From positions 37,820,001-37,884,000 of the forward strand of contig OZ076411.1 of NCBI GenBank assembly GCA_964187785.1: a stretch of DNA of 64,000 bases, read 5' to 3'. This DNA comes from Amphiscolops sp. MND2022 (taxonomy: Eukaryota). The position numbers and the translations under genes are program-made. Under the pieces are notes generated by a model, which was not told the DNA's origin, did no database searches, and worked only from the letters and a program-made list of their open reading frames with translations. Shown here in pieces: positions 206 to 64,000 of this stretch. Position 1 is the stretch's first letter. Each line of letters begins with the position of its first letter.

Positions 206-238
206 TCAGTACACAAAGACGATAGTAGTCAGAGCACC

Positions 239-277
<39 letters not shown>

Positions 278-17329: not shown

Positions 17330-17960
17330 ATGATCCAAAATATAAAAGAGGCATTGAATTTCTCTTGGAAGTGTGGTTGGTTGAAGCTCAAAGTTCGTCC
17401 AAAAAAGGCGAAGTTCGTCGTCAGGTATTTCGATTACATTCTTAGACTAGTTAAAATCTTACAGGTCAACTCCACTATAAACGCAGTAAACAAAATGCTT
17501 GTAATATCGAGTTCACTATTGACCAAGAGCAAGAAAACTCGAATCTTTTCTTGGATATGTTATTGTACTCAACACCGACCGACACTGAGATTCTTTAATA
17601 GTGTGGCTCTGACGAGGTACGAAAAGAATTTTGTCGATGGAACTGTTCATAGAATCAAGCAGACAACATCTAACTGGCAAATCTTCCGCGATGGCATAGA
17701 AAAAACAAAAAATGGGAATCGAATCACCACCATCCAACATATTTCTCCCAAAATATAGTCAAAAACCGTGACAAACGTGGTTTCCTCTGAAAAATCAACC
17801 CGAGGGTCGTGAGATATCAGACGGAACAATCGAGAAATCAATACGCCAACCTTCATGATGGTGTACAGAGGCATCGAGAGTGACCTTTCTGCGGAAAATT
17901 TACAATCGAATAAGGGTTTTTGCCATCTTCACAACGAGAAAATTCAAGTAGTGTCTCCCA
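17330..17960 (+). mobile_element. Penelope-like element remnant, RT C-terminal part (left of LTR insertion)
   Basis: VALTRYEKNFVDGTVHRIKQTTSNWQIF is Penelope-like; rejoined empty site reads CLPSGKSPF..SRVFYE. Confidence 0.7.
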
Positions 17961-21299: not shown

Positions 21300-21311
21300 C
21301 TCCTGTCACCA
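21300..21311 (-). promoter_or_regulatory. Primer-binding site (tRNA-Leu-like)
   Basis: TGGTGACAGGAG abuts the LTR end; one mismatch from the TGGTGTCAGGAG complement of a tRNA-Leu 3' end; primer identity is inferred. Confidence 0.7.
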
Positions 21312-24707: not shown

Positions 24708-25400
24708 TGTAAGCACTAAGGTCGTCTGTGTCTCTTAAATGAAAGGCGTACCATGAGTCCTTTTTGTAATTTTAGTTTTGAGCCCATTTGATCCTTCTCT
24801 ATCTTCCTGATTTTTGGTACCGAACCTCAGGTGGACTCAGTGTCCCTCTGTCCTGAAGACAGCGTGCCCATAGCATTTTGAATCTCTGGGATCACTCTAT
24901 CATTGATGGCAGAATTGATCGCCCTAGTTATCTGGACTTGTAGGATGTTCATAATTGAATCCGTCACATGGGATAACCTGAGATTCAATTCCTCTGATAA
25001 CATTTCCATAGACTCTGAGTGTTTATCTGACCTAGTGGTCTCAATTTTACAGCCAATGTTTCGATTCTCAATTTGCGGTGAAGGGATTTCGTAAGTAAGA
25101 GTGGCCTCGGTGTCATTTTGGCCGAAAGAATGATTTATTACAATTTCCAATTTTCTTTCTATAAAAATTGAATTGTTTCCACTAATAATCATGTCCATGT
25201 TGTTTTCATTGGACCTCATGTCCATTTCTCTAGATTTTCAAGCCTTTACTTTCTGACGTCTAGTGGAAGGCACATGAGATTATTTGCAAACAGAGTTTAT
25301 TTGAATGGTTTTAACAAATTGGGTATAACGGTATCAACGAAAATTGTGGTCCCGGGACTACGAGTCCCGGTTATTTATATGCAACACTGCATGACACTCA
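24708..25400 (-). mobile_element. LTR-like 3' portion carrying a degenerate ORF start
   Basis: Minus strand (M)PSTRRQKVKA*KSREMDM...QITRAINSAINDRVIPEIQN, ending ..GCTTACA at 24708; homologous to 51557-52143; far end not located. Confidence 0.6.
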
Positions 25401-25511: not shown

Positions 25512-25711
25512 NNNNNNNNNNNNNNNNNNNNNNNNNNNNNNNNNNNNNNNNNNNNNNNNNNNNNNNNNNNNNNNNNNNNNNNNNNNNNNNNNNNNNNNNN
25601 NNNNNNNNNNNNNNNNNNNNNNNNNNNNNNNNNNNNNNNNNNNNNNNNNNNNNNNNNNNNNNNNNNNNNNNNNNNNNNNNNNNNNNNNNNNNNNNNNNNN
25701 NNNNNNNNNNN
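25512..25711. other. Assembly gap (200 N)
   Basis: Run of n. Confidence 1.
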
Positions 25712-28700: not shown

Positions 28701-30640
28701 GAAGACGAATCCGAACAAGAAATCTTTGCACGAAAAGCACTCAGTTTGCGACGTGCTATAGACGAACACAAGAAAGAACTATCAACAAAAGTAACCGAAG
28801 TCATCAAGATACCGCTCAACTCCGCAGTCTACTCGTTCGGCGCAATTAAGGAAAATGCACGGATCAGAAACGAACAAGATGCAGAGCCTCTCCTCAAAGC
28901 ACTGAAACAACGGATCTCACACGAAGAATATGACAAACATCTTCTCAAAACTGAACGACGAGGACGAAACCTATTACGCCACGAAGAAAGAATCATTATG
29001 AAAGATGGAGTTCTAATGCGGAAGTCTACGGAGAAGACGGATCAGTTACACACAACCAAATCATAATCCCAAAACACCTAGTTCCAGAACTCTTGTCCAC
29101 CCTGCATGGAAAAACAAATACACACCCAGGAATTACCAAAATGATACGAGAATGCAGAGCGAAATAGTACTTCCAGGGTCTTGCACGCAAAATCAGAGCT
29201 TGGGGAACCAGTTGTCCAGACTGCATTGCCAACAAAAGAATTGACACGAGACAGATACGTCCCAAATTGCTAAGCAACACAGAATTCACAATGGGACCAG
29301 AAGACTGCCTAGAAGTAGACATCTTACCGAACCTACATTCCTCAAATTGATACCAACACATCCTAACGAAGATGGACGTCTTCTCTCGCTACTTTTTCGC
29401 ATACCCGACGCAGGACATGACAACAAAAACAGTGGCACGAAGCATAATTGATGTCATGACAAAGCATTGCTACCTACCAACCGTCATACTAACGGATAAA
29501 GGATCACAGTTCAGATCGGAGGTAGTCAACCAAATAGCCCAAACGCTTGACATACGGATAAGCCACGCATCAACAAAACATGCTCAAACAATCGGCATCT
29601 TAGAACGAACACATGCTTCTTTGTAAACTTCACTGGAAATATCAACGGGAGAATGCCGTTCCATGTGGCAAAAATATTTCCAAATTGCAGTCATGAACTA
29701 TAATACAAGCTACCACGAAAACTTATGGTGTGAACCCACGACAGTGTTCCACGGACGCATCCCGTACAACATCCTAGACATCAAACTTGGACTGAAGCCC
29801 AATTGGAAGAATGACAACACCGAAGAACTAACGGAACAACAACAAAAGCAATTAGCCGAAATCCATCATGCCGCTAAAGACAATCTAATGCAGTCCTACC
29901 TCAAATACAAACAGTACTACGACAAGAAAGCAACAGCTACGCCACTCAAAGTTAGCGACTACTGCTACGTCCTTAATCCGAAAGCAGACAATCAATCAAT
30001 GAAATTCGCCTTCAAGGATTGCATTTGGACTGGTCCCTACATAGTCGTCAAAGTACTCTCGAACAACAACTACGTCGTACGTCGCACAGGAACACGGTAT
30101 ACTCAATTCCTCCATAGAATTCGCCTAAGGCTATATGCGCCCAATCAGCGAGTACCTGACGTAACAGTCAGAAGGGAAGGTTACCTTCTAGATCCAGAGG
30201 TTAAAACAACCCACAATGATTGGTACGCGCAAGCTTGGGAAACCGAATTCGGAGAAGTTCTGTTCGGAAATACCACGGAAACGCCACTGAAGAAGCCACA
30301 GTTACAAAAATTACAAACGCAACAGAAAAAGACGACACTACAGCGGAAAATGACGCGGTTAAAACAGCCACAAACGAAACTACAACGGAAAATGACATGG
30401 CTCAAACAGCCACAAATGAAAATACTGAAGGGGATAAAACATCCTCCGACAACGTTACGTCTTTCAACCTAGATGTCAACAATATTCCATATATTTTGAC
30501 CCCACCACCTAAACAAAGCCCCCCAAAACACCTGAATTACCTCCTATAGTCGTTGGATACAATCCTAGGAAAGTAGGAAGATACATTTTACGACATAACC
30601 CAAGACCTAATGGCAATCCTGACTTCAGAATGCTTGACTC
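25712..30640 (+). mobile_element. Gypsy element 1: gag end + pol (PR-RT-RH-IN), decayed
   Basis: PR LVDSGA; RT FAQRKPNAKLRLLVDLRK, KLDCSHAY, YVDDI; RH LMTDASFRASG; IN HPGITKM..CPDC, DVFSRY, TDKGSQF, GILERTH; C-terminal GRYILRHNP; many frameshifts and stops. Confidence 0.95.
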
Positions 30641-30872
30641 AGTAACTACGGAAGACTCACGTCCAACTCAAGACTAGATAAAAAGGATCGATATACCAAA
30701 CCGAACCGGAATGGCTACGTCAAATTTTGCTCGGACTTTTTAAACTAAGTGTATATACTACGGATACTAGACGTACCCCAACGAAAAGATATATCAAATC
30801 ATCAGATCAACAGTACAATACACTATAACAACAAGGAGTCAGAATTCGCAATTTAATTCTTGGCAACTTTCT

Positions 30873-33800
30873 TCAGTTTATGGAATACTTCGGGATCTTC
30901 ATCTTGAGGCTGAGGATTTTTCTTCTTCTGAGACGCTTTTGGTGTTTTTCCTTTAGAAGAACATTTAACCTTTTCACCTTTTCAACAGACTTTGAACTCC
31001 GTTTTGTACTCGTCGTACTGGCTATTTCATTTTTTTCCTTCCCAACTGAACTAGAAGTGCTTCTCACAACGGAACTAGATCGTGAACCCTCATCCACACG
31101 CGCCAAACGATTGAGCCGTTTACACTCGGCATAATACTCACCACATGCTCGTCGTCACTCTTCCAGGAAATCACTATAAAGACGACAGAACGAATCGATA
31201 AAGGAATCCACACCAGGGCCACTCAAATCTGCCCACACGTTGTAGTCTGTCCCAATAAAAAAAGCTCCAGCAGTACCAAAGGCTGAACGTATTAAAGCCA
31301 GCGTATGCTCCGTGAAGAAGGATTGATGACAATAATCTGCACTTAAAATATGCGTTTGGACAATTCTGAGACACAATTGCACACAAGTTCTTCGCAGTCC
31401 ACACCCACTCAAATTCACAGAAAACGAAGGATATTTGCGATGCGGTTCTCCAACGACCAAACAACACAATTTAAAAATGCGCAGAACATGGCATCGTGAT
31501 CGGAAGAAGCAATCGTCCAACAAATAACGGCGCACATCCGAAATGTCACTAGCAGAACGTTCCAACCGACAATGCTGTCTCCTTTTCTCAATAGTGTAAG
31601 AATTATATTCATCCTGAGCAGCTTAAGCTTCGTCACTGGCAATAGCGTTGCATTTCATCAACACACGACACAGCTCGGAGAAGAACGCAAACGCAGCATT
31701 ATCGTCACCTTCCAACATGAGCTCTGGACAAAAGCTGTACAGCCCTTTCGACGCTACAGATTTCGAACTGGCACTTTCCGCAATCAGAACAGCGAGACGA
31801 TCAATGAACTCTCTACAACGAGTCCGAAACTTCGTCATCTCACTCGTCTTCACAGACAATAGGCTTCTACCGAAATCACACTGACCCAGAAAATCCTCCG
31901 GAGCCATAGCGGGAAAGCCAGCAATCTTGTCGACGTCCATGTACTCCTCCCATTCGAGGATACCAGGTAGCCCGAACAATTCTCGTGTCTTCATGAGGAG
32001 ACAATACACAAAGTTTCACATCTCACCGTAATTGTGAAATCCGTAATCGTTCCGTTTCTCTCTCAGCTGGGGCAGATGAATATGAACTGAAACATTAAAC
32101 ATTCAATACTAGCCTATATCGAGAAAAGGAAGACACAACTATGTTACAAAAACTACACCATCCCCCAAACTTGCCCGAAAAGAAAAAAATATCATAACCA
32201 TTCTACTTACAAGTATCCAGCATTAATCCAAAACTGCATTAATCCAAAACAGTACGTACGTCACCAATCCATCGGAAATCAATGTGTGGTCCATCCCTCT
32301 CAACTGAAACATAACACAAAGACGTCACCCCAACGGAACCATCGAATCAGCACCTAAGGGAAACTGAAAAAGAAGAAGAGGAAACCAGAGCCGCATATGA
32401 AAAAAACCAACAACACAAAAAAACTGCAACTAACATTATCAGGATGGTCATTCACGTGTGGTAGCCCTGTGCAGATCTTCATAAACAACGAATTCCTGAC
32501 GGACACACTGGCGGAGGAGAACCTTCCCTTCGGTCCAATCTTCATAGACAGCACATTTCAGACGAATGACAACATAATCCACTAAGCTGGTTACTTCCAC
32601 CATCCCAAAGACGTCTTGGTGGGCCTGCCTCACACACTGCAGAAAGACTTCCTCTGTAAACTGCAAATGAACAACAAAACGTTTTTCATCGTTCCAATTG
32701 TCCTCTATAACCCGAAGGAGGGAAGGACTTGCACCAGTAATACACAAGGGCAAACGCGCATTTGGCAAACTATGGACAAACTGAGCCAGAGGAACAAGTT
32801 CACACTTTGGCATGGGCTGCTCTGAAGACTCCCCACCGATGCAGATCCTATTCAACGAATTGGTTAGCCAACACATAATGAAGCATCGCTCAACGTCGGC
32901 ATCACTCTCATAGCACAGTCCATACTCGTTATTTGAACCCACAGCACTCAAGACGAGCCGTAGTACACGTGGAGCAAGCGCTTGACAAATTATCGGCTAC
33001 AATAAACAATAACAGTTATGTGGGCCGGAGAAAAAAAAGAAAAAAAACAAAAAAAACTTTCAACAAAAATATAAGAAATGAGGAATGAGGCTTACCACGG
33101 TCTCAGTTTGACTCCAACTCATCTGATACTCTGGAGCAATCGCTTTCAGAGAAGAACGAAAGTTAACCCATAATCGGCGCAATAGAGCAAAGTCGCCACC
33201 ACTCCGGAGCCACTCGCAGACACACGAGATCAACGTCATAAAGGGAACCTTTGACCCCACCTGAGAGTGTTTTGGCAGCAAATCCTCAGGGAAAGGAAAC
33301 CCTTCCGCCAGATCGACGAACTCTCGTGACTTGAAATCAGCAATTTGACCAGCTGACAGCTCCATAGGCTCTAGAAGCCTATTATACACAGGCAATCCCA
33401 TGTGCACTCGGTAGCTCACGTCTCGGTACCGGTGACCATCTGAAGAAAAATGCCTCTTGAACTCACCGGCACCATGGGCTTTCATCCGCACATCCCGGTG
33501 ACACACACGACAAAAGAAGAAAGTAGGCTTGCCGCACTTGGAACCACTGACAAAATCGGCATAAACCGGGTTCAAAGCCAACATTCGCTTTTGAAGATGC
33601 TTGCGACTACCATAAGTACGCACTCGTCGCTGATCACCAATCTTCTCCGAAAGCTGCGAAAAGCCTGCAAACAACAGAAAAAATCCCCAGCCGTAAGACA
33701 ATCGACTTTGAAACCACTAACCCCCCATACCTACGAAAACGATCAAACACCGCCTAACAATCGAAACACCAATCAGTACAAACCTGTTCCAAGGCTCTGC

Positions 33801-34950
33801 ACAATACGGCTCTCCACCTCAGCGATCAGTTGACGTCCAAAGCGCGCGAAATCACCAGGGCTCACAGGACTACCACCAGGGAAAAGAGGAAGATTGTCTT
33901 CACAATCTGCAACATTACACAACCCTTTAACAAATAGCCCAGACAATAGCGGAGTGAAAACACACGACAACATCAAGTGACAACAAACTACCGTTCAGCA
34001 GAGGATACTAACAGCTCAAGCCCCCTTCCAGAAGATCATGAAGCGTTGGAGTCCCGGACTCTATCTGACGAACGACTGGCTCAGTAAACCCAACGGTTGT
34101 TGCTCGTAATCGCCTCGTCTTCTTAGGAGTCACCGGAGTAACTCCGTCTTCCTCCCCCTCGTCATCACCATCTTTTGAGGAGGGCGGATCAACCTCGGCT
34201 CCCCGAGGCTCAATTTCAACATCTGCTTCAAGGAGGTACTGCCTACTCTCCTCAACCTGCACAGGAACGGCGACTATTGGAGACGAATCCGTGACAGTCT
34301 CGGAAGAACAGTAGATGTACTACATCCAGCCGCAGGAAGTACGGATGTCGGGAGAGTACTAAAAGCTGTGGCAGGGAGTACCTCGGAAATAGCAGGAAGT
34401 CCTCCGGAAGCCTCGGGCAGTACAGAACTCGTATCAATGGTGAACCCGGGAAGAGTAATGGGGTGAGTTACTGAAAATCAAGATCTGGTTCAGACGCGTC
34501 AGAGAAATCGGGTGAGACTACAAAGGCTGATCACCAAAACAGTAGTACAATCACCCATGAAAAACAGAAAGATTTTACCAAACCGTAGTGGGACGAGAGA
34601 TTTCCACGTCAGAATGAATCACATCATCGTCAGTGAAGTTAAATGACTTGTCATTCCGGCTAACAAACCCTGCAGAAGTACCGGGAGGAGGAACAGCATC
34701 TTCATCCGTGAATAGAGAAACCTTCAAGGCAATCTAAAAGAAAAGAAAATCAAGAAAGAGGAAAATACGCTATGTGAACGTAATTACTCAAAAGAAATTT
34801 ACAGCGCCACCCCTACGTATTCGAGGGAAATACATATTTTTCAACTTCACGGAAAGTCTATTGAGAGATTGAGGGGAACAAAACGTTTCCAAAACTCCCA
34901 CAGTTGAATAAAGTTCATCAAGAAGCTCTGAAGAAAACCCTATTAAAAAC
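30873..34950 (-). pseudogene. Multi-exon antisense cargo gene of Gypsy 1 (zinc finger + hAT-like C-terminal region)
   Basis: ORF blocks 33060-33701 (CRVC..KRH....H), 32448-32951, 31623-32009, 31155-31565, 30873-31106; phase-0 GT-AG intron 33095-32997; homologous to 61851-64000. The 5' limit is approximate. Confidence 0.75.
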
Positions 34951-35291
34951 CATCTTATAAAGTACGCTTTGTAGTCGTAATCCTATGCAGAAAATTGATG
35001 ACGTCACAACGACGCCATCAGAAGAAAAGAAGATTAAGATGAAAAATTTCCTATTTTGACCAATCACAGCGAAGATAAAAGTTCGTCGCCTTAAAAGGTC
35101 AGGACGGACCAAAACGAAAGCGGAAAATCAACCAATAAAATTGCGATAAAATTGCGAAGAAAAGGAAATTGAAACGGTCATTTGTCGTCCAAATCTTCAG
35201 CTTGACCAACTCAATGCATAGAAATTTTAGGTCTCAGTTTTTCTGCAATTCAGAACCTGAAAATTGTCACGAAAGCTCTCTGTTACCCAAA

Positions 35292-36001
35292 ATGAACAGC
35301 TACTCTTTAGTCATTGACATATCTTCTGATGAAGAAAACGCAATAACGAGCACACCACTGAAATCACTGCCCCTTAACATGATTGGCTCACTAAGTGATT
35401 CCTCAATTGAAGTATACCGCGGGAGTGATGCGGAGTTAGATTCTACTTTGAATCGCCCCAAAAGTCAGGATTATCTCCCAGGAAAAAGAAGAAACTGGGA
35501 AAAGTAACTTTCAACTTGCCCCTCACAGGGAATCCCGTCTCAGACTCGGATGAATATTATGAAGAGCCACCCACTCCGCAGAAACAACCCCTTTTAAAAC
35601 CTTCACGGAAAGTAAACGTGCCCCAAGAACTATTAAATGACCTAAATGAGCCCTCCTCTATTGGACCCATGAAAAAGTCGGCACGCGAGTATCACGAAGA
35701 ATTGTGCTCTATGGAAGAGAAGGAATACTTCGCTAAATTAGCCCTCGAGCTTGAACAAGAAGAAAAGAAAATAGCATACATGACAGCGGGAAAAGGACGT
35801 GGCCCCCATCAAGTGCGAAACTATATTAGCCGCCCCCCAGTTGTGATAAAGAAGGAGATCCCACACTGCCGCGCCCTACCACTATCTCTAGCTTCGAGAG
35901 AGGCCCCGTCACGACCCGCTCCCGGTCGTAATTTTACTTGTTGCTCGGGCATACCGGGATTCGGCAGAGGACACGGACAAGGACAAAGTAAATACTTTTA
36001 A
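35292..36001 (+). pseudogene. Sense accessory ORF (~235 aa, one frameshift near 35490), low complexity
   Basis: MNSYSLVIDISSDEE... joins KKKLGKVTFNLPLTGNPVSDSDEYYEE... via a frameshift in an A-rich run. Confidence 0.55.
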
Positions 36002-36537
36002 ACTACTAAAACTAATTTAATTCTACTTACGGTGCAACTAGATAATTGCAGATTTTTCCAGATACAGAATCTAACGTAAACGTTACGGAATATTTTCAAA
36101 AATGATTCTAAGCAAGCTAAAACTTCCGGTCAGATATTTTCACGCGCAACGCTATTTCTTATTTCCGGTTTCATCTTCTGATTTTTCCATACCAATCTAA
36201 ATATTAAAACAGAAACATTTTCTAAACGGGATCATTTTCTTAGCTGCTCCACACTGAAATGGTAACATCAAATATAAGAGTTAACTCCGAGACCCCAACG
36301 GAGTTCATACGATCGAAAATAGAAAACATACAAATAAAGAGGAGTTATTTTCTCCGGTATTAAAATAGTTGTCAAATATCTGTTTAAGACCCTAATCAAG
36401 TGATTCTAAGCAAATGTTTACAATGTTTTGACTGCGTGACTCAATTAAGCTAATAATGGGTGTTTCTATTTTTACGGACCAATAGCGTCGCTCCTTAATT
36501 GAATTATTTGAGCTCGAGCTAATAGCAACCGCGCTTG

Positions 36538-36552
36538 GTTGCCCCTAGCAAC
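36538..36552. promoter_or_regulatory. RFX X-box-like motif with nearby CCAAT
   Basis: GTTGCC-CCT-AGCAAC fits GTNRCC(N0-3)RGYAAC; CCAAT at 36479-36483. Confidence 0.3.
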
Positions 36553-37789
36553 GCCAGTTAGCTGAAAGAAAGAATGAATTCGCCTACGCTCTCCGCTTTA
36601 TCTCCGTCAGCCACCGCTGCTTGGCTATAACCAACCTTAATACGTACGGAGCAACTACGGAGCGAATTGTAAAATTGTCTTCCGCCGCTCAGCTATAGTA
36701 TATATTATTACGTACGGAGCACCTACGGAGCAATTCGTAAAATAGTAGCGATGAAGCATTAGTTTAAGAGGAAATCAAACGAGCTTTTTTTTCTGAATCG
36801 ACGCACTTAAAGGATTTTGGAAATAAGTCCTCATGTAAAAAGTTGTACCGTAAACAGAAGTTAAAACTATGGTTGAAGGGTAACGATACTGTGCTATTAT
36901 GACAATCTCGTAATCACGTTTATCTTACGTTACACTAAGGGTTTTCATGTATTCAGTAGTTAGTAACTTACAGGTAAAACATTTCACAGAACGTAACGTA
37001 AGATTAACGTCAAATCCAAACCATGTGCTATTCCTACCGAATAACCATCTTATTCATTCATATACGATGTTGATTCGGGTGCAAAGTAATTGTTGTTTGC
37101 AGGTATAATTTTTCCTACCTTTTTGTACTTTGTAGTTTGTACTTGCCACGATATGGCCATGTATAGGTCAAATTTGAGTTTACTGTAGATGCAGCTGTTC
37201 GATTTATACAATTAATTGTTGGTCGTCATTATATTTTTCCAGCATTGGTTGTTCCTCAATAATATCCAAATATCCACATTCTCAAATTCCCTTCGCTCCG
37301 TTTCAGTTCCGCTACAATTTTTGCGAGTCATTCTTTTGCTTCGAATCTCAACTTTCTTGAGTTGGGAATTGACTAATTGATCACGCCGGCGTGCCTACGC
37401 CGATGAAAATATAAGTTAGACTTTTATTTTGCCGCAATTTTGAGGCTTAGACAGGAAATGGATCGCCTGAAAAAATTGATTTCAACGAGGTTTTACGGAA
37501 TACCGACGCAACTAGGAATTTCGATACCTGATTTTATGAGGGACTGAAATAATTTGAATCATAAGCGCTTTTTGATGAACAAACCCGATTTTTACAATAC
37601 CTAGGAATTTTTAGGTGAGAAACAAATGATGCTAGGAAGGTATAAATACTTAGACAGGGCATGTAAATTTAGTTAGTTAACTTTGCTTGTTGTAATAAAC
37701 TTAAACTGTTCCGTTGCTTTAACGTTAAACAAAAATCCTCTTCGAAGAATTCACCTCTTGCCGGAAAACCTACTTTTCTAACTGCAAAA

Positions 37790-38167
37790 ATGACAATTAG
37801 GAGTCAGAAAAGGAAAGTTTTAGCTGAGTTAGTTTCTGGAGATTTTGAAACCTCTGTGACCGAAAACTCTCCGTCTGAAAACCTCGTGGCTAGTTCTAGC
37901 AAAGTTCCTAGAGTAGAACCTGAGAGTCTGGTTGAGATAAAAACGTCTCTAAGGAAAAAATCATGTCTGATTTAACAAAAATACTTGCAGAAAACCAAAA
38001 GGAAATGCCTAAATTGATAGCTCCTTTAGACAAGAAACAATCTGTCCACATGAACGTTCAAGACTCTGATTCTGAACCTGAAAATGTCTCCGTACCAAGG
38101 ACGTCCGCTCCCGTCTAGATTCACACTGCGACTAACTCTAAAACAACACCGGTAAATAGTCGTAACA
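37790..38167 (+). mobile_element. LTR-like 3' end with ORF start (probable 3' LTR of Gypsy 1)
   Basis: MTIRSQKRK...TTPVNSRN ending AGTCGTAACA, the same terminus as the 17961/21312 LTRs; LTR start not located. Confidence 0.6.
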
Positions 38168-39125
38168 CATCTATTTATTCTTGGAAAGCGAAGGGCAATA
38201 AAAGTTATTTTGCAGTTTGTGAGAAAGTGAACCAATTAAGCAAACTAGTTGAATTAGGAGGCACAGTGACATCAAGATCTTTGTATATACTGCGATTGCG
38301 TACGTAGAAGAGAAATCAGACTCTTCCCAGCCTCAATTGTTTGGCAAAAAGTATCGAATTTTTAAACACAAAAACAAGTTATTCTTGTTCTGAATATTAA
38401 ATCATGCCTTGCCTTAATTGCGCCAGATTTCCAAAATGACAACTTGAAAAGTACTTGTCTTGCCTTCGTCCTCGTATGATTGAATTTAAATCGGAAATAA
38501 CGTTAATAATTTGGATTTAGATTCAGAGGATTTTTATTCAAAGAGGATTTTTCAATGTAAGCGGTAATTATTCCATTGTTCAAAATGAAAAACTGCAACC
38601 TTGTAACATTGGTTCGAGTCGAAATCCACTCTAATTATGGCAATACCTGACATAAATTGGGTTCAGCTTGGAAAATTTATGATATAACGTCATCATTTCC
38701 TACGTCATTTTTCTGCAAAGCATTTTTAGTCCAAAAATTGTCTCGAAAAGAATTCGGCGACAAGTCGAACAATTCCGAAAACCTTCTAGGCTTGCGAAAC
38801 GCTTCATATTTGATGAGAATTAATTGGGGTTCTCAATTAAAATTAATTGGGGCTCCTTCCGGTTAAAAAATCTTGGGAAAATGTTGCACAGTTCCGTCGA
38901 AAAACCTCAATTTGGGACCCGCTCCCTTCTATTTATGCAAGCAGAAAGATTTTGGTCCTCTAGGACAAGTGCGAAGTACTTCCCAGTTTTCCACAAGCGC
39001 TTCTAGTAGTTAATAGCAGAAATAGTGGAAAAAATTTGCTCGTGCTAAAATGCTAAAACTAATTTCCCGTGCTTAAAGTTTATGTAGATTTTTGAGAAAA
39101 CAAACAATAACGAGTGAATTTCTAG

Positions 39126-40350
39126 ATTGGGCCAAGGTGGAGGTGGAGGTGCCTGGATGGCCATTTCGCCAAACTACTACGAGCAGAAGAAACGACTGAA
39201 ACAGGTGCACGAACTAACTTACTTGTTAGAAGTGGTCGAGGGGCTCCGGTGGAACTTTGCTGCACGGTTTTTCAAGACATTCAACTTCTTAACCAGATCT
39301 GATACCAAAATATCAGACGTGCTTGTCGAGAGCAGTATTCGGACTGAAAACATCATAAGCCCATTGAACGTGTCATCGCCGTTGGTAAAAGATTTTCAGC
39401 CAATAGAATTGCTTTTCCAGTGGAAAGATGGTTACATAATAATGAATAACAAGTTTATCGGAGTCACAATATGGGATGCATTTGCAATTGTTGCAAACAT
39501 GATTCTTATGCTCGAAAGGGCGTGGTTGACCTGGGGGCGTCTTTGCGCCAAACTAGTGAGAACCAGGGCTCAGTTTTACCTGGATCAGTACGAAGAAAAT
39601 TCACCGGAGTGGAAACTTGTGAAATCAATTTTGGATCGAAATGGCAACCTAATTTCAGCTGCGTGGGCCATACGCAAAATGAATAAAGTTGCTCTTCGTT
39701 TGGAAAGATTACAAGTTAAAAGAAAATTGGAGAAGGAGTCGCAAGCTCGGAAAGCAGAACATCGGAGAAGAAAGTATTTGAAGTACTCCATTTTGAGAGG
39801 CGACGTATGTGACCCAAATTTGACCAAAATCGAGGAAAAACGAATCATCGAATGGGAAACCTACAAGAAATTGTTGAAAGAAAGGGCAAAGTATCGCGAG
39901 CGATTAGATGAATTAGTGAAAACTGAAGAAATTGAAAGGATAAATCGTATTTCAACTTATATTAACAGAACCGGTTATGCAAGTACAGTGACTCAGAAGT
40001 CAGACAGTTCCAAAAGTTCTAGCACTGGCAGAAAACGGCACAGTCGGAAAGTTTCCAAAAGTTCCAGCACTTCGATCAAAACCATTTCAAGTGCTGGGTC
40101 AGACGACAGTGAGTCATATTTTGCGGACGAACAGGAGTTCAAAGGTCAAATTGTGAATGCTTCTTCTAGAGAACCAATTCTGAGGAAGACAACTCGAATG
40201 CAAAATTGTATGTTTCAAGTCAAAGAAGGGCTGGAGAAAATTAAAAGGAATGAAGACTTGGATGACGAAATTGATTTCAGTCATCAATTTACTAATCCGT
40301 GGTCTGAGAAATATCGACAAATCAAGGAGAGAACAATCCACTACTCCTGA
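39126..40350 (+). CDS. Candidate host gene exon or orphan ORF, 407 aa; coiled-coil/basic middle, Ser-rich tail
   Basis: 1.2 kb stop-free in AT-rich DNA; AG acceptor at 39124-39125; no TE motif or known domain recognised. Confidence 0.65.
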
Positions 40351-44153: not shown

Positions 44154-44801
44154 TCACCCCGACGGGGTTCCCATCTGTTGTCCACAGCTCCTGAGATGTC
44201 TTCGGAGGTTTGTTGCAGCCTGCGGTACTTTACAAGAAGGGCATTCCTTCAGGGTACGGACGTGTTTCGTGGGGCTAGTTTTTCCTTGACATTTCTTCTC
44301 GTGATTCTTCAGATTTGCTTTTTGGCTAAAAGTTCTGTTGCATTTGGTACATGTATGATATGTTCTCGCTTGACTGTGCATTCTCTTCATATGTATTGCT
44401 AGTCCTGCTCGCGAGACGCACTGCTTCCCGCATTGGGCACACTTGATTTTTGCGGTTGAGTCCAGGTGTCCTTGTTCCATTCTGGTCACAGAACCTCCAG
44501 TCCACCCATTTTCTTGGGATGATTCCCACAGCTCTATGTGTCGGCTTCTTTCACGGATGAGGCCTCTCCATCTTTCACGATCTTGGGCGATGTCATTTAT
44601 TTCAAGGGGGTCCCAACCAGCTTCTCTCGCTAGCTTTATCCAGTATCTAGGCGTGCATCTGAATTTCTTCCTTTCTTTATCTGTGCACTCCAGTTTACTC
44701 AGCCAACCGAAAGTTACTTGCTTGGTTCTGCTTTCCTCTGGCATGCGGAGTACATGGCCCAACCGTTCTAAGCTTCTTTTCTCGATTTTATTTCTGATCA
44801 C
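44154..44801 (-). pseudogene. RTE-like ORF2 C-terminus with three zinc-finger-like motifs
   Basis: CAQC..HMKRMH, CTKC..HEKKC, CPSC..HLRSC. Confidence 0.8.
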
Positions 44802-45031
44802 AGTCCGTCCCTCTAGGCCCCGGGTTCGGATGAATGTCCCTCAAACACCATCTGATTACCATCTTCCGATGTCTGCAGTTCTCCTTTGTACCCCGGCCAG
44901 GTGGACAACAGTTTACGCCTTCTGGTTGTTTAAGGAGGTGCACGGTACGGCTATTTCCGGGCCACTCCCTTCCCAAAACAGTATTTGCTTCGAATGCTTT
45001 CGTCCTCGGAGCACGTCCCACAGTTTGGGGC

Positions 45032-50156: not shown

Positions 50157-51096
50157 CTAATGATAGACATAGCTTCCCTTGTTCTTGAGTATTGTAAGAA
50201 TCCGCTTATCCATTGGTTTTTTAAGGTTTTGAAAAGTATGAGGTTCAAAATTCGAACAAATAGATTTGATCGAGTCCCAGAGATTACTTTTATTGTTGTA
50301 CTGCTTTCCACTTTCGTATAATTTTGCTTTTACGACAGCCCACAAGTTTTTTATTGGATTGAGATCCGGAGAGTTTGCTCGCCAATTCATTAGATGCTTT
50401 CCCGACAAATTATGAATGCGTAGAAAAACTCTAGCCATGAGGGACGCGTGGGATGGAGCATTGTCGTGCATGAAAACAAAGTTGTCGTGAAGGCCAGGTT
50501 GTAGAAGATGTATTTCAGGAATCAAATTTTGTTCCAGAAACTCGGTGTATGTGAAAGCGGTCGTTTTCACGCCGTCCGGTACCTTGAACGGGCCTATGAG
50601 TTTAGCCCCAAGAATAGCTGCCCAAAACATGACCCCTCCCCCGCCTTGCTGTCGTCGTAACCTAACTGGGATATCCAGCTTGTTCAATACCCAACCTCTT
50701 GAGAACACATCTGGGCCATCCAGTAAACATAACTTTATCAAAATTTTGATTCATGTACTTAACTGCAAATTCAACTCTCCTTTCCTTATGGTTCATAGTC
50801 AATGGAGGCTTTTTAATCGCTGATTTCATTTCAGTCAGGACTTGGATTGTCCTCCAGCGTCTAGTTCTAGATTCAACTAGAACATTGCTTTCATTGAAAC
50901 ACTCTCGAGACGTCGTAAGTGTGTTTCGAGCAATTGCCATCTTCAAAACCGTCATTTCCTTTTTCTTGATAATTTTAGAGTGGCTTTTGTCACTTCTACT
51001 TCTGACTTTGGATGCTTTTTGAACAAAATTTTTCATTGTACGGTGGTCTCGAGATAATATTCTTGCTATATCAATTGTAGTTATTTGATTAGACAA
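50157..51096 (-). pseudogene. Tc1-family transposase, frameshifted
   Basis: HTH IARILSRDHRT; VMFT/DGPD; GGGVMFWAAI; FMHDNAPSH; WRANSPDLNPIKNLW (catalytic E appears as K); frameshift ~50720; TIRs not located. Confidence 0.92.
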
Positions 51097-51556
51097 TAAT
51101 TTGACTATCTGATCTTATTTAAATTGTTGTCAGATCACGTTTCCTCCCCATAATGTTGCCTGTATACAAATGCGAAATATTATTAACAAAATATTGCCAT
51201 AAAATTGATGAAGGTGCAAGTATTTAATTACTCTTGTTGAAAATACTGTTTCTTGCTTAGTAATTTGAAACCGATTTGTGTTTGTCTGTTGCAATTAATG
51301 TTTGAATACAGTTTGAATGAAACCGGAAACTGCATGTGAAACGATTGTGAATGAAACTGTGTTCAAACCATTCACTTGCTTAATAATTGGAACGCACAGT
51401 GTTTTCACCAATACAAGGGTCATATTGTTCGTTGCGTTCTTCTAAAGTGAACGAAAACGAACCAAAGAAGCCGAAAAAAACATAACCAAAAATTCACAAA
51501 GAGTCATCGCTTTTCGTCAGTTTTTTTTTAGATACACCTGAACTTTTCAACATAGA

Positions 51557-53266: not shown

Positions 53267-54341
53267 TTAATAAATAGGGAGCGTTCCGGGCGCTATTTGC
53301 TGACCAATTGCAGTTGTTGTTATCTTTGTACCATCGAAGGCGGCAGCCTGCGACACTGCAGGTGTTAAAAAGAGTAACGAACCTGCATTCAGACCATTTT
53401 CATAGGCTTCTCTTCAAAGTCTCGTGACTTGTTCCGGTTTTTCCCTACCTGTAGAGCTTCTCATGTAGAGATCTATTTTCTCCTTTGATGGCATCTGCCG
53501 TGCGACCACAAACCAGACATCCTGTATAGATGGTTTCGCTCACGTCCTGGTAGGCCCTTGTGTTCTGTATATGATAGCCTGCTCTGAAGCTCGAAACCGC
53601 GGCCAAATTGATGGGGATATCCACCGACGGGCCCCTCTCGTGAGGGGTCGGAGACATGGGTGATTCAGCGACTGGGATAGTGGTTTTGCATAGCTGAATT
53701 CTTTGCAGAGCGCTCTCCTTCTGACACACTTTTTCGTCAAAGTATTCCTGCCCTAATTCCTGCCCTAATTGGGCAGTCTCGTACATGGGCCTGCTACCAT
53801 TTCCTCTTCTTCGCCTTCGACAGTCTTTATGCGTCCGCCGCTCAGTACTGGACTTGCGTGTACTTTTCTTTCAAGACTTTTGATTAGTTTGGATCAATCG
53901 GAGTCCCAACCATCATACACTTCGCCGCTCTCGTCGAAGTTAGAATCCAAGTCATCTGTTTCAAAGAGCCTTTTGGACGAGTTGTATCTTTGCATTATTC
54001 GCTTTTTTTGCAATTTTGAACTTTCAAGGAGCAACCTGGTTAGGCGAGATTTTTAGGCAGGATGAAGCTGCTGAGATTCCTGAAGTAAACCGAGTCAGGT
54101 CTTTTCCCGGCAAAATCGTTTTGGCGGTTTACCACTTGGTAAATTACCCCGAGTCAACCTAAACTTTTCTGAATGGATTTCCACTTGCTGTCGGCGGCCT
54201 TTGGAATTCCGATGTTTTCCCCTCATTTCCATCATCATCAGAAGATGTGTTAACAGCGCTTGAGTTGTTAATATCAAATACACTTGTCTCAAGTGGGTAA
54301 TTAACTGGTTGTTTGAAGGCAATTAACGGCACGCGTGACAT
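53267..54341 (-). pseudogene. Accessory ORF (~350 aa, frameshifted) of a minus-strand LTR element
   Basis: Blocks MSRVPLIAF..TSSDDD, RLFETDDLDS, GCLVCGRTAD, NGLNAGSLLFLTPAVSQAAAFDGTKITTTAIGQQIAPGTLPIY*. Confidence 0.55.
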
Positions 54342-54699: not shown

Positions 54700-55772
54700 G
54701 TCTTCAATTGCTGCTGCTGACTTCATCTTTCTCAGAGCATTCCGAATCTTCTTGCCTCTTCAGCCGAAACCGGCCGATTTCCCCAACTTCGTCAACTAAA
54801 AAAAGGACTAAATCCCAGGAGGCAATCTTATCTCAGCAGAATGTGTTCAAACACAGGTTTGTTTGGATTTTTATTTTGACTAATTTAACTTGATCAGGGC
54901 TAAATTCTGTTCATAAAACGCTTTCTGTTTCCATCACTGAACACATGATAACACGTTTCATTCATTTTCTCAAAACACTTCCGGAAGATTTCTAATGCGG
55001 GAAAATGGATTTCTTTCAAGGAAGTCCACCGCTATAGTTCATCTCTTTTCGTTTAGAGAATCAACCACCTGAACCCGAGACACTGCCAAATTCTTCCCCC
55101 AGCCTTCAATCTGCCACAGCTGGAAAAATTGCCCCTGCCCCTCAAACTGCCGTTTGGCCTCTCAGCTCTTCACGAAGTGCTGATAGTGAACCGGACGTCA
55201 ATGCATACGCTGCAGCCATGGTGCGGAGTATGGAGACTGAGCGACATCTTGGCCAAGAAGGGCACGCTGTTGCAGTAACAAGAGATGAATTGAAGCTCAC
55301 ATTGCCTCAATTTCACAACTGCCCGAGCTATTGCCCACCTCAAGTCAGGATCATGAGGACACAGCCACAAACGTCCCTCAATCCGAAGACGACAACGAGT
55401 CGTCCGTCTATGAAGTTCCTGCACTGCCCAACAAAGAACCTAAAGTTCGGTTCCTGACTGACCTGAGCGAGGGGGAAAACTGTTGAGGAAGCGAGCGACG
55501 TGGGGTGTCCTTTCTTGTACGGGAGCATCCCCAGTGCAACTGAATCAGGAGCTGAAGCTGAAGAGGAATCCGGACACAACACCCTGTTCCAACAGGGACT
55601 CATTGCTTCGACCTCCAGAGGAACATAAGAACAACTCCGGGAACTGTCTGGAAGACCTCGAGCCATCCTCAAAACATTTTTTGAGGAGACAAAAGCATTT
55701 AACCTGCCAAGGGGTCATCCAACTGTGGCCTTCACTGAGCCACAAATTTATCACCTACTCCGGGTCTTAACA
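54700..55772 (+). pseudogene. 5' exons of a spliced gene, divergent from 53267-54341 (truncated)
   Basis: 41-nt intron 54857-54897 (GTTTGT..CTAAT..TCAG); acidic low-complexity ORF blocks; TVAFTEP resembles TVGFTEP near 34090. Confidence 0.4.
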
Positions 55773-55859
55773 CACAACACCCTCAGGATGTCCCATGTCC
55801 CATCACAACGATCCCATTGACACCACCCTGCCTGCAACAGAACCACCTCCCTCAGTGGC

Positions 55860-58800
55860 CGTACAAGACCCAATTTTCAGACTGGCAGGCGTCTTGACGA
55901 ATCTCCAGAACCGTCCAGCAGCCAACAGCTCACTATCCGCCCAGTCAACGCTAGTACAATGACTTTTGATGGCAAAAATGAGAAATTTGAGCTGTTCGAA
56001 GATATATTTCATACGATGATCATGATGCAACCAGAGATGTCTGAACGGGTGAAAATCAGTCACTTTCACTAACGTCTTAGGAAGGGAGCGTTACAAACGT
56101 TCAGAAACATCAGCTCGGTCAATAGACGATTTCTCGAAGACGTTTTAGTCATCTTCAGACGGAAATACGTCAAACCAGAGTCCCATCCCAAGCGACGGCT
56201 AATTTTAATTGTTACCGCTTGGTATTTAACCCGAACTCGATGAAGCTACCCGAACTTCTCGAAGAACTGAATCAAGGGGCAGAAAAGGCGTTTGGCGACA
56301 ATGCTCAAAAGGTGATTGACAGAAAAGGCAAAATTGCAACCGAAATTGAAAAGATCAGTCAACATGGCCAGTTTGCAAAACGGCTCAAACGATGAAATAG
56401 TCGCTCATTTGGAATGAGAACTCGAGTTTAACGCCCTTGAGGAGTCAGATGACCTTCCTGTGACAACGATGACTTCCGCGACATCTAAGCTCAAATGTTT
56501 TCTCTCCAATGGACTATCATCTGACATCGTCTGCAATTATTGCAAAAAAACTGGCCATATGGTCAAAGACTGTGAAAAACTTCAGAAGAAAAACGAAAAG
56601 AATTCTCAAAAAAACAAACCGACTCAGAAGAAGTTTTACCCTGAGTGTGGAAATTGTGGCAAGAAGAAACACCCTGAGGAACGATATCGGCAAGGCACAG
56701 GTGCGAATCTCAAGCCTAAACGTACCAGGCCTGAAAACTGTTCGGACAACAGCCCGGACTCTGAAGCACAAAAACCGCACAATAAAACAACATCGACTAA
56801 CTCCCATTCCTCATCCAAAAAGGACGACCCAAAAAAACTAGCTTCGCGACGACTCCAACACAACGATCTAGTATCAGTCCGACAATTCGCCCGATCTGAT
56901 CCTCCAACGAAAGTTTTCGACGACTATTAACAACAATTGATGGGGTATCCCTCTGTTGTCTGGCAGCAACAGATGGAAAAAGCAACCCTCATCACATTCA
57001 ATAACACCCAGTTGTACCAAAAACCAATTCTTGTTTGGGATCCTGATTACACCACATAATTCACAAGCCGATTCAAGTCTATTCCCGCAATTGATGACTA
57101 CAATCCAACATACATCAATCCAGACTATGGCAAAGATCCCTACTGGGATACCGAAATCTATAACCAGGACTTGCTGCAATTCCAGCACGTCCTAGATGAC
57201 ATCAACCTCTACAACAACACAGTCCACGACAATCCACTGATAACTCACAACAAGAAAACTAAGGAGCTCATTGAAAACTGGCACATGAACAATGGAACCA
57301 CCCATCCAAGGTTCTCAAACCCATTCGGGACCGAGAACACCAAAAATAACGCCGAACCGTTGCCTCAGTCGCTTTTGGATAAAAAACAGTTCCAAAACGT
57401 ACTTATCATCAAAGACGGTGAGCCTGACTGTATACCGCTCTCTACCAACATCAAACTCAAGTGCAAGAAACGTTTGTTGTGTTTCCCAATGGACTTTGGG
57501 GAAGTAACCATACTCTGTCTAATCGACACTGGGGCATTGTCCAGTGCAATTCCTGAAATGGACCTCCGGAAAATCCGTTTACTTTCTCCATAATAACTTA
57601 TCCGGGAAGGTCCGCCTCCGGACTTTCAAATAATGGTCGCCAATGGACAATTAGAAACTCCTGAAAGTACAATTGAACTGAAATTTGAGGTTGGTGATAT
57701 CGAGTTCCATGAAATCTTCATAGTAATGGAGCATCTGACCGGTCCGATAATTGGACTATTGTTCCTTCAGAGAAATCATACAGTCTTGGACATGCGACAA
57801 GTAATTCTAAACTTCCCATTTTTTTCGATGCAGCTCAAATCAGCTGAACGTCGATACTCCAATGTTCTTGAACCATTATTGAACCTAAATGAAACCACCA
57901 TTCCGCCCATTGTTATAGTCCTAATAAGGACAAATTCCTTACTATCCCCGGAGAATGCAGAAACAGGCATCCTGCAGCCAAGTGACCTCCTACATGAAGA
58001 GTGCGACATAACATTTTGCCCTGCCTTGGTCACCTTGAACGAGGGCAATGTCCAAATACCCGTGAAGAATTTCACGGATCACCCTTATAAACTCAAGAAG
58101 GGACTGCATATTGCTAACTTCTCAGTCGTGACACCGGAACAGATGAAATATGTCAAACCGGTCGACCAACACTCAACTTGGCATTTATTACAAAATGAAC
58201 AAGAAAAAGCAGCACACTATGTCAACAGTCTAATCAAATTAAATAGAAATACGAAAAATTCTGAAAACTACTGGTTCCTTACACCAGAGAATGCTGGAAA
58301 CTCCGACGAACACAAACCCATCCAGAAAAAATTTTTGGGTGAATCCCATGCCCTACAGGACCTGGAGACCCTTGACCCTACCAAAGATAAAGACTCTAGG
58401 ACAAACTTTCTAGCAAACGTCGACTGGAAGGACTCAACACTCACACCTGGCAAAATAGAGAGAGTCGATGAAATACTAGTGGAATTCCATGATATCTTCG
58501 AACGACACCGATTTGACATCGGCTTGAATGAGGTATCTAAGGTGAAACTAACACCCAAGGAGAGTTCCCCAGCTTACTGCCAAAGTCTCCCAGCCCCGAT
58601 TAACCTGAAAGAAGACATACTACTCGAACTTGGTAAGTTACACAACTATGGCACAATCACAACACTTCCATTTTCCAATTATGCCAGCCCAATCTTTGCG
58701 CAGAAAAAACCGAATTGGAAACTCCGACTACTAGTCGACTTGAGAAAATTCAACAACCCAATATCTGATGAATGATTGTATAAACAATGTTCACCCTGTT

Positions 58801-61640
58801 AGTACCCTAACTGACGCTGCCAGCACATGGGCGGGGAAAAGCCCTTTTGTAAACTTGAGTGTTCGCAAGCCTATCATTGTTTGCAAATGGCTGACCACCG
58901 TTCGATTGAAATGTTGGCCTTCAAGTTTGTTAGTCGCACATTTGCATATAGACGTTTAGCACAAGGCGTTAGCACCGCGCAATCTCCATTCTCAAGTTTC
59001 ATGGGGGAATACTTTGTCAAAGTTATCAAGGCGGACCAACGTGCCCAGTATGTGGACGGTATCGACATTGCTGCCAATGACGCCGACCACCTCATTGCCA
59101 AGCAGTGAGCCACGTTCAAATGCATTCAGGAGGCAGGTCTTAAACTGACAAATGTCAATTTGGCGCAACAGAAATTGAGTTCTTCGGACGAACCATTAAC
59201 CCTCAGGGCGTCAAATCACAGAAGCAAAAGGTACATAGTTTCCCTGAGAAAACCAATTTTGCGAAGTCGAAAAAGGCTTTGCAACACTACTTGGGATACT
59301 TGAAAGACAACCAAAACTATGTCCCAAGACTGTCTGAACGCCTAGCCTCAATTTACAAGCTGCTTAAAAGTGACGAAAACGTCTTAGTATCTAAAGAATT
59401 GGTTCAACAATTTGAGGAAATTAACAAAGCACTAGATGTTGCAACTTGGCTCTTCAACAACCTCTTCCTTGCACTTTACTTCGCATTTGAAGAGTTTGGG
59501 CAAATTTTTTGGGCAAATTCCGCGAAGATGTGCAGACCTTACCAATAGAAATCAATGTCCAATCAGCAGGAGTGTCACAAGAAGACCAAGTTTCTATACA
59601 AACGATGATGATCAAACTGAAGAACAATATAATGAGAAACGAAGCAATTAGAAGAAATCCCGCCACAACCGAAACAGCCATAACAATTCAGTCAGTTTCT
59701 ACAAATCTGATAAAACAACAACCCGAGATACAGGTCCGATTACGGAAATTAAATCAGATCATTATCGAGCCATCCAAAGACGCAGTATTACAACAATTGA
59801 ATGTAAAACTCTTTCATTAGGAATATTCAGAAATTATACTGCAACAGGTTGCCCGATATTGACACTATGCTAAGAACTTGGAACGAATTGTAATCGAGGA
59901 AGATGTCCTGACAAGGCAATACTTCGATGAAACAGGGAACGTAAAATACCATCAGAGTCTTCTTCCGCAACATTTATCTCTGGAATTGCTTCAGTTCTTT
60001 CACGGGACAGCCCATAGGCACCGTGGCATATCAAAAATGTTACAGGAGATCAGACAGAAGTATTACTACCCTAACATGGCGAAACAAGTTAAAAGGTGGG
60101 TAGAAGGGTGTGAACAATGCGAGATGGAAAAACGAGTCCCCCAATGCAACAACCACACCTGAACTACTCACCTTGCCAGAATGGGACCTTGGACTCGAAG
60201 ACGCCATGCAAATCGACCTATTGCCGAATCTTCCCCCAAGTGGAGGAGTCCTCTATGCAATTGATGTCTTTTCGCGATATCTATCTGTTTACCCACTTAC
60301 GGATGCATCAGCAATCAATTTAGCGAAAGTCATCGTTGACATCATGACAACACACGCATGTCTGCCTACAACTCTGATCACAGAAAAAGGAACTGCGTTC
60401 ACTTCCACGACAATTGCGGAAACCACGCAAATATTGGCAATTACTCTCAAATGTGCAACGACCAAGCATCCATAGACGATCGGGAAGCTGGAGCAAACAC
60501 ATGCATCTCTCAAGACGAATCTCAAAATGGCATATGTGGTGAATATCGCCGACAATGGCATAAATATTTGCCGCCTACAGTTTTGAATCATTATACAAGT
60601 TATCATGCAAGCATTGGCTGCGAACCAACTCGGGTATTCCATGGACGACTTCCATACAATATCTTGGATCACAAGCTTGGAATTAATCAAAACGAGCAAA
60701 TTACACCCACAACTGAATTTGCTGAAGAAATCCAAAACCGGACGGAACTCCTGATAGACAAAACACATCAAAATATTATGCATTCCCATCTCAAATACAA
60801 GTAATATTATGATCGCAAGACGTGAGCTGCTCCACTCAAGGAGAAAGTCTATTGTTTTGAGTAACAACCCAAAGCTGATCACCAAGGGTCGAAAATCCCA
60901 CCGAGAGATTACCGTTGGGTCGAACCATTTAAAGTATAAAAAGTGTTACCTAATGAAAACTCTTTAGTTAGCCGGCTCAACTTGAATAGGACCCAATTAC
61001 TGCACCGCATTTGCCTCGAAAAGTTTGTTCCCAATCAACGACTCTGTTCCGAGAGAAACGATTACAACCGGTTGAAGAAATGATTATTCAGCAAGATGAT
61101 TTATATACAATTTCGTGGGAAACGACCTTCGGAGAATAGCTAGCCACACGAGGCAGTGAGCCTATTCCGACTAGCTTGCCGAACGGCGAACAACGGGTTA
61201 CATTCAAACACCGATGCAAGTGATACACACGAGATTGAAACTGATTACATAATAACAAGAGACAGTCCGAATAACGTTGACGAGAAAGCGCAATAGCAAA
61301 GTGAAAGATGCCCTGATGACGTCGGCAAAAGAAATGAAGCTTTTGATGCTGAAAGGTCTGAAAACTCTGATTGGTTGGATTCTGCCGTTTACCTCAAAAA
61401 TCGAGAAAAACTTTGAAGGATCTGTCTGAAAGACAGGAAAACGATGCCAATTTTTAGAAGAAAATTCTTCTAATGAAAAAGATGCAAAAGACTCTCCAAA
61501 AAGGAGGGATGATATTATCGTGCCCGAAAACTCCCAAATCGACAAAAAAATAGAAAATCTGAGCCCTGGAGGAGGGAAATACATTCTCAGGCCTAACGGC
61601 CTAACCCTCATCCAAACTACTCAGAAGACTTCAGATACTA
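55860..61640 (+). mobile_element. Gypsy element 2: gag-pol, decayed, same family as element 1
   Basis: gag TFDGKNEKFELFEDIF; CNYCKKTGHMVKDC; PR LIDTGA; RT FAQKKPNWKLRLLVDLRK, YVDGI; IN H...HRGISKM..CEQC, DVFSRY; C-terminal GKYILRPN; RNase H core missing. Confidence 0.95.
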
Positions 61641-61850
61641 GGAAAGAATTGAATATCACCCGGAAACCAGCGATACCTCTTTTTTTCTTTCCTTTTTTTC
61701 TTTTTTTTCTTTCTCCATTTAGTCCCACTAAGGATTAGTTTTTTGAATAAACGATGGGACAACAAATGAAACAATCCCTTTCAAGCAAATATTTACAGGG
61801 AATGAAAGCCAAAGAAGGAACCAATAATTGCAAACAAAAATAATCAAAGT

Positions 61851-64000
61851 TTACAGTTTGAAAGTACATAAACACATATGTGACTCATCAACAGCTGACT
61901 CATCAACAACTGAAGAATTTTCTCTAGCATCTATACGTTGAGAACGAACTGCTTTTGAGCCCAGATCTAACCGACCGATACGTAGACAGTAGTAACTTAA
62001 AGTTTTTTGTCCGGCGAAAGACATCGACGGTCTCCCAGGGATCGTAGCTTGGAGAAAAGGCAATACGCCCAAAGGAAGCAGAGAGAAGAGAGCAATTTGC
62101 GAGGTTGACATCATTTTCACAGAATGTAACAGATCCAGAAACCCCAGACAAGTAACTCTGAACTTGAAGAATGACGTCAGTGAATCGGCCTCGATGACCA
62201 GATGTATCGATACTCCCAACTACTACTCCAGGATGAGAAGGGCTTGCGGTCGTGATGCATAAACAACATAGCAAGAACAGGTAAAGGAGGTGTTCTTTAG
62301 TCTGCAGGAATTCCAGACTCATTAAGAAGTTTATAAAATCTTCTGCAGCTTCGGTGACGTCAAAGTTGGCAGAATAAATGGATCGGAGATAGTCAAGAAG
62401 TTCAACATAATAGTCTCGGCATGCCGATTTGTTTGCGGGACTGACCCAAGATCGACGTTGGAATGTGCTGAACAGCACGTCGAAACGTCGGAGTGCCACC
62501 TCAGTAGGACCCTTTAACATGGTGGATGGGTCGATTGCAGCCAACCCCTTGACTATATTGGAGCTAAGTTCAGTTTGTCGAAGCGCCTCACTGATCACAA
62601 ACTGTATATAAGGCTGGCCATCTTGAATAAACTCGGACTTGATAGTGTCGGCCGTCTTTTGAATCAAGGCTAGTTCTGTCCTCTTACCGGAGTGGACCCC
62701 TTCGGCTTTCCGCTTGCTAGCGGAAGCCACCTTGTTCATCATTCTGACTTGGACTCGGAGAAACTCCTCTGCTGCCATGAAGGTTCCATCACCGACCCGG
62801 GAACTTAAAAGGAGGAACCACGCGCTAGGAAGGGGAACACTTTCACTTGTGTACGTTCTGAAGCACAGCTGATAGATGTACCGAGAAACCTCTCCACACA
62901 GATAGAATGAGGCATCACGCCTTTGTTGCAAGTTGGTGAGAAAACTGGACTTGTCTACAAACAGAACAATGAACCAACTAGGATCATTAACAAATACTTG
63001 AGGGCAACACTAATGGACTAACAATCAGTGGCAAGCCTGTAGAAGAGCTCCAGTTTGACAAGGAAAAACTCATCACAAATGAGCGTTTATTCGAAGCTTT
63101 GCACCTCAAACAAGAAAATCCCGGTTGCCACTTATGATCTTAGGAACCTACCCTCTGCAAACTGACGAACTGAGTCAAAACAAGCGTGAATGGAACAGGC
63201 CTGATACAGTTACTTACCCTGGTTCGGACTCCCTGCTCTTGTTGGTGTGTGGGAAGAACACTTACTCGGGATAGTTCAGGGCTCCGCTGAACCCAGTCTT
63301 CAGAGTGTGATCCACCCAGAGAGATCATCAGCCAGCGTAAGACACAGAAGATGTCTAATTTTCCAAAGACACTGTAACAGGTCCTATGCATCAATCTGGG
63401 CAAGTTCATCTGTTCAAAACGGAAGCAACTCTGAATGCCCCCGAGAGAAGGTGGGAGCCTGGTCAATAGTGCGGATCAAGTTTGTGGGACCACAGAACAA
63501 GCCACGAAGTCCGCCTTAGTTAACACAACTGATTGCAGTCGAGACAGTGACCCCAGCTCCCCTGTAAATTCTGTGGTCGGCAGTTCACTTCGGCAGACGA
63601 GTACCTTGTACAAACTCTGGCCTTTCCAGAAACGGACCGACATGAAACGGTTGGGCCCTTTGTCCTCGTTTTCAATGGCGATACACGGCTCTGCGGCAAC
63701 GTGTTCAGCAATATCTGACAAAACACAGTTCAAGAAATGTTGGAAGATGGCCTGGAAGAAGACCCAATTCTGAAGAACTGAAAATACCCATAGAAGGCAG
63801 TTAACAAAAAGAACTTTCTGTCGTATGTTCTTCATTCCAGTCGAAATCACAGAGACGGGCTTGGTGGTTAGTGAAGGAACTGATTCTGGCCCATATATCT
63901 CGTAAAAAAGAGAAAATACCCTGAGTCTGCAGGAAAGGAAGTCAGCTACAATCATCAGTTGGGTCTTGGCTCAAGTCTCGGGCGTGACTAGGGCAGTAGT
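61851..64000 (-). pseudogene. Multi-exon antisense cargo gene of Gypsy 2 (runs off window)
   Basis: 335-aa ORF 61924-62931 homologous to 31155-32009; phase-compatible introns 63022-62955 and 63217-63170. Confidence 0.78.

Follow-up and report, generated by a model that had tools for sequence, protein, structure and literature searches.

We analysed a window of 64,000 nucleotides from Amphiscolops sp. MND2022 (contig OZ076411.1, positions 37,820,001 to 37,884,000 of the forward strand; all coordinates below are those of the window), a repeat-rich eukaryotic stretch that contains two decayed Gypsy-type retrotransposons, both on the + strand and distantly related to each other, each followed by a copy of a gene on the opposite strand. 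The copy at the end of the window (61851-64000, - strand), here called copy 2, is probably a dead multi-exon gene that was inherited as cargo of a Gypsy lineage, and that would have encoded a nuclear zinc-finger regulator of its element, possibly derived from a disarmed transposase of the hAT type. The antisense gene is real, and the exon model proposed for it in a first-pass annotation, made from the sequence alone, was half right.

Exon–intron structure and decay of copy 2

The open reading frames (ORFs) in the databases are called without splicing, and many of them read into flanking introns, marking the exon ends. The last exon, F (61851-62954, - strand, as is the whole gene), has 342 open codons counted from its acceptor (335 aa in the database call, P0001) and an all-helical model (pLDDT 60). 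It has 109 database homologues, most of them at 45-67% identity, and its profile retrieves 633 clusters at 50% identity, of which the best 150 are listed. The intron preceding it, E/F (62955-63022, 68 nt, phase 1, GTTAGT..TAG), was placed correctly in the first-pass annotation and, as far as sequence comparison goes, is confirmed beyond chance. An AG acceptor at phase 1 requires a codon starting with G, and a residue with such a codon is found at this position in 91 of 100 pattern-matching proteins (403 examined; the rows include near-identical cluster members and are not independent). In addition, P0228, P0247, P0324 and P0328 read through the intron in frame, with both sides conserved and an unalignable sequence between them, and P0212, P0218 and P0282 lack the intron and have the exons joined as predicted.

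Upstream of this intron lies exon E (63023-63104, 82 nt), matched by P0051, P0212, P0228, P0238 and P0247 at 45-68%, and then intron D/E (63105-63217, 113 nt, phase 0, GT..AG). For this region a 48-nt intron (63217-63170, GTAAGT..CAG) and a 147-nt exon with both junctions in phase 1 had been proposed. The letters are present and the donor at 63217 is real, but the acceptor at 63170 is unsupported: matching to P0051, P0212, P0228 and P0238 starts at about 63110-63104, which places the acceptor at 63105, and P0247, which has no intron D/E, scores 96 with the 63217-63105 model against 75 with 63217-63170, its alignment extending 11 residues further upstream. The homologue boundaries therefore give the 82-nt exon instead of the 147-nt one, and the donor at 63217 is phase 0, given the coding frame that leads up to it. 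The in-frame splice RLATD-Y-KSSFLTNLQQRR is literally present but relies on the unsupported acceptor, and both of the TAA codons described for the longer exon exist in that frame, but with the acceptor at 63105 the first is intronic and exon E itself has one.

Two junctions were absent from the earlier model, the donor at 63265 and the intron 63818-63752. A search with the frame upstream of 63217 revealed exon C (63266-63751, 162 codons), with 63 homologues at 44-67%. It ends at the C/D donor (63265, phase 0), where V is found in 55 of the 57 homologues that could be parsed. In copy 2 the segment 63218-63265 opens with this donor and closes with some ~10 final codons of exon D: P0349 reads through into exon D, whose ten terminal codons match 63247-63218 in frame 0 (score 49 vs 22). 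Copy 2 thus appears to have undergone an internal deletion that removed most of intron C/D together with the beginning of exon D, and that would have fused the donor to what was left of the exon. Intron B/C (63752-63818, 67 nt, phase 0) is marked by the read-through ORFs P0343 and P0345. The segment beyond it (63819-64000) is the 3' end of the zinc-finger exon B, matched by residues 1-140 of P0345 (tblastn, 59%, two frames, E 6e-15), which makes the predicted continuation of this exon beyond 64000 likely.

Intron content varies between subfamilies, E/F being absent from the three proteins named above and D/E from P0247 and also, with the other frame read by hand, from P0385. In P0349 the stretch just ahead of exon D is similar to the final residues of exon C, a hint that an intron was gained by duplication.

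To judge from its sequence, copy 2 is a dead relic, as had been concluded before, because it carries stops, frameshifts, a non-canonical donor and the internal deletion. The part of exon B in the window contains a single stop (63973) and changes frame near 63937, the donor of intron B/C is the non-canonical one, exon C has two compensating frame changes bracketing about 63490-63437 (seen as second-frame matches), exon E has an in-frame TAA at 63089, and the C-terminal ~40 residues of exon F are shortened and frame-changed relative to the homologues.

Copy 1, the protein family and the two Gypsy elements

Copy 1, traced by profile, tblastn and hhalign searches, is also broken; its exons B to F occupy 30873-33665 (- strand), and low-complexity 5' exons are seen in addition. 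It carries a C2H2-type finger at about 33520-33435, with a CxxC..H..H pattern whose best Pfam match, a weak one, is KIN17 C2H2 (E 0.045). Compared pairwise, the proteins of the two copies are marginally similar (21% over 239 aa, E 0.007), but the relationship is firm by profile: exon F gives E 3e-24 with a profile built without the rows from the window, exon B gives E 5e-9 (tblastn) and exon C E 7e-4 (hhalign). These three exons are collinear, in agreement with the description of copy 2 as a second, diverged copy of a spliced antisense gene. The claim of phase-matched introns holds for B/C (phase 0; 63818-63752 in copy 2, 33095-32997 in copy 1) and for E/F (phase 1; 63022-62955 and 32210-32087), but not for the proposed 48-nt intron. 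Exons B to F sum to about 790 residues, with the 5' exons in addition, and at least five introns are predicted. The motif TV[AG]FTEP occurs both in a 5' exon of copy 1 (~34100, -) and in the N-terminal region of the element-2 gag (~55730, +), possibly by chance.

All the homologues of exons F and C (109 + 63) are unnamed, and Pfam scans of exons B, C and F and their homologues gave no significant family. The exons are conserved across families that are 25-65% identical and the introns are not, as expected from the past purifying selection already proposed for the gene. Exon C is predicted to fold as a helix, three strands and a helix (low-confidence model, pLDDT 43), and has near-invariant acidic residues (E32, E34, E70, D86, D102, D138 and E156, numbering in A2). 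The conserved columns include acidic residues at the end of strand 1 and an invariant CFRF without His.

The pol of element 1 (26100-30677, + strand) has Pfam matches to protease, reverse transcriptase (RT), RNase H and the integrase C-terminal domain, in the order by which a Ty3/Gypsy element is recognised at the sequence level; the 5' end of the element is lost at an N gap (25512-25711). Element 2 (gag-pol, about 55038-61641, + strand) is decayed, and a zinc knuckle (56418-56927) is the only Pfam match of its own ORFs. It is collinear with element 1 and homologous to it in RT and integrase DNA, the RT DNA being 64% identical over 564 nt. The elements may resemble those of acoel worms. No flanking pair of long terminal repeats (LTRs) was found within the 64-kb window for either element, element 1 starting at the N gap and element 2 running beyond the window end.

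Both gene copies are antisense and immediately downstream of pol, as is an aORF-3R (an antisense additional ORF between pol and the 3' LTR), and each is convergent with pol and ends about 200 bp beyond its stop. In copy 2 the distance from the terminal TAA (61853-61851) to the pol-type stop (61641) is 210 bp (spacer 61642-61850), as first estimated. The tail of P0038 resembles 61879-61730 (42%, E 0.002), and a long purine-only run on the - strand occupies 61670-61720.

Cargo status and origin of the gene

The best reading, which we consider likely, is that the gene is inherited Gypsy cargo, because both copies lie antisense ~200 bp past pol and no terminal inverted repeats (TIRs) or target-site duplication (TSD) were found. 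This search covered copy 1 (30640-30900 vs 34700-37500, exact 8-mer seeds; decay could hide such repeats), copy 2 being cut by the window end. Under the cargo reading the gene would travel inside the Gypsy element, and a promoter of its own, close to the 3' end of the element, would drive its transcription. Its introns would persist through retrotransposition, since in the packaged sense RNA they lie backwards and would remain unspliced. The protein of 790+ residues would bind nucleic acid through its C2H2-type finger and enter the nucleus by means of a basic Ser-rich tail, and its predicted function would be to control whether its own element is expressed or silenced.

Several points weigh against this interpretation. 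It rests on two elements in a single window, and with no LTR pair we infer the placement inside the element. The D/E acceptor at 63105 is a rare GAG, possibly one more lesion. Recent amplification of open copies is visible in clusters that hold 30-99 members at 90% identity and in 58 of 70 listed members of five clusters extending to the C-terminus, but these counts are biased to open frames, as gene callers report ORFs only, and cluster members may derive from several assemblies of one species. Against a hAT origin in particular, no Pfam hAT or BED family (PF02892) was found in any scan, no PDB sequence matched at E < 0.1, and nothing was found among proteins of 733-2090 aa (a result that the tool itself marks as weak evidence).

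That the gene descends from a hAT transposase whose catalytic activity was lost is a suggestion to which we give slightly less than an even chance. It draws only on the order of motifs and on sub-threshold hints: the gene has what we take to be the hAT arrangement, with an N-terminal C2H2-type finger, a three-strand segment with an acidic strand 1 end, a conserved Trp pair and a long helical region, and comparison with the Hermes-like fold and PF05699 gave sub-threshold matches only, from low-confidence models. TIRs with an 8-bp target duplication, by which a hAT transposon is recognised, were not found at copy 1, and neither the CxxH motif nor a full DDE is recognisable by eye in the conserved columns. 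Compared with the hAT transposases Hermes and Kat1 (PMC4763223), the gene differs in having no significant sequence or fold match and no TIR/TSD. Somewhat more tentative is the full scenario, in which a hAT DNA-transposase gene with introns would have been captured by a Gypsy lineage and maintained behind pol in antisense orientation, catalytically disarmed, to serve as a regulator or anti-silencing factor. It would then have reached hundreds of families, while introns came and went within an active retrotransposon.

Alternatively, the lineage may have transduced and retained a host gene that has no relationship to transposases; this view shares the cargo reading, differs on origin only, and is a serious though less favoured possibility. 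The gene is intron-rich, as host genes are, and has no significant match to any transposase, but its homologues, all unnamed, are of one source type and resemble multi-copy repeats, with no named host relative among the best 150 of the 633 clusters. DNA transposons are typically intron-rich, with an N-terminal finger and a high copy number, so that these features, the weak hAT hints and the lack of visible LTRs would also fit an independent DNA transposon, hAT-like or other, that landed just behind pol in each of the two elements, or in a single ancient event as a passive passenger. We regard this as improbable: two independent insertions that agree in distance and orientation are unlikely, the pol stop and the gene end are only about 200 bp apart, TIR/TSD were not found, and a passive passenger would not keep its exons conserved across such divergent families.

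Marginally less probable again is that the cargo is an active enzyme, a nuclease or an alternative integrase, rather than a regulator. The tight conservation of exon C, its near-invariant acidic residues and its three-strand start, like that of an RNase H fold in the low-confidence model, speak for it, but the elements already encode an integrase, no D-D-E or CxxH arrangement is recognisable by eye, and there is no fold match. As for a chance ORF with splice-like motifs on the antisense strand, the acceptor at 63170 was indeed such a motif, but hundreds of open homologues, conservation that starts and stops at GT/AG positions and a splice reproduced in intron-less homologues leave it a negligible probability, and for exons C, E and F it is refuted.

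Neighbouring sequences and known accessory genes

Gag-like N-terminal fragments of other elements are seen by eye on either side of element 1 (24800-25230, -; 37790-38170, +). A decayed ORF (53400-54340, -) diverges from the element-2 gag on its 5' side, mirrored by an ORF (35292-36001, +) that diverges from gene copy 1 on the 3' side of element 1; each opens with a Ser/Asp-rich stretch, and tblastx between them found no significant similarity. A 1560-nt direct repeat (17958-19517 and 21309-22868, 99.4% identity), with 54-nt tandem units close by, either arose by recent duplication or represents a small LTR-like pair. The open frame at 39118-40350 (+, 410 codons) has no credible Pfam match. 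By their motifs, 206-3388, 50157-51114 and 44154-44840 (all -) look like remnants of a LINE-like RT and ORF1, ORFs of the Tc1/mariner type and an RTE-like end that bears C2H2 fingers.

Plant and fungal Gypsy elements are already known to carry additional antisense genes behind pol. In the plant Retand, Grande and RIRE2 elements, as far as the accessible texts describe them, additional ORFs are, like this gene, antisense, downstream of pol and conserved among copies, and are proposed to be nuclear or DNA-binding regulators with their own promoter (Grande gene23) (PMC11963269, PMC7264820); they are without similarity to other transposable elements (PMC7264820). The Retand TRP28 corresponds to PF04195 (PMC11963269, PMC7264820), a family absent from our Pfam scans of exons B, C and F and homologues. 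The word "intron" does not occur in the accessible text of PMC11963269, whereas at least five introns are predicted for the present gene, whose protein has 790+ residues. Outside plants, brtn is an additional antisense gene of a Gypsy family, the Boty-like elements of the fungus Botrytis, likened here by description only (PMC8365987). Among animals, the Vesta and Juno LTR elements of bdelloid rotifers offer a parallel as Gypsy elements that have captured genes other than env and carry them behind pol, but their ORF3 cargo, expressed from spliced messages, is of sense type with GDSL, DEDDy or env-like domains, none of which is present in this gene, and neither "intron" nor "transposase" appears in the accessible text (PMC5408684). 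In the literature outside Repbase and subscription papers, we found no account of this family, nor of a gene from it with 790+ residues and at least five introns.

How the antisense accessory genes of LTR retrotransposons arose and what they do are described as open questions (PMC7264820). The present family is large and unannotated, with young open copies and with introns present or absent between subfamilies, features that make origin, intron turnover and function directly testable. Should the transposase origin prove true, it would be a rare instance of domestication between classes of mobile elements, the core gene of a Class II element having been taken over by one of Class I.
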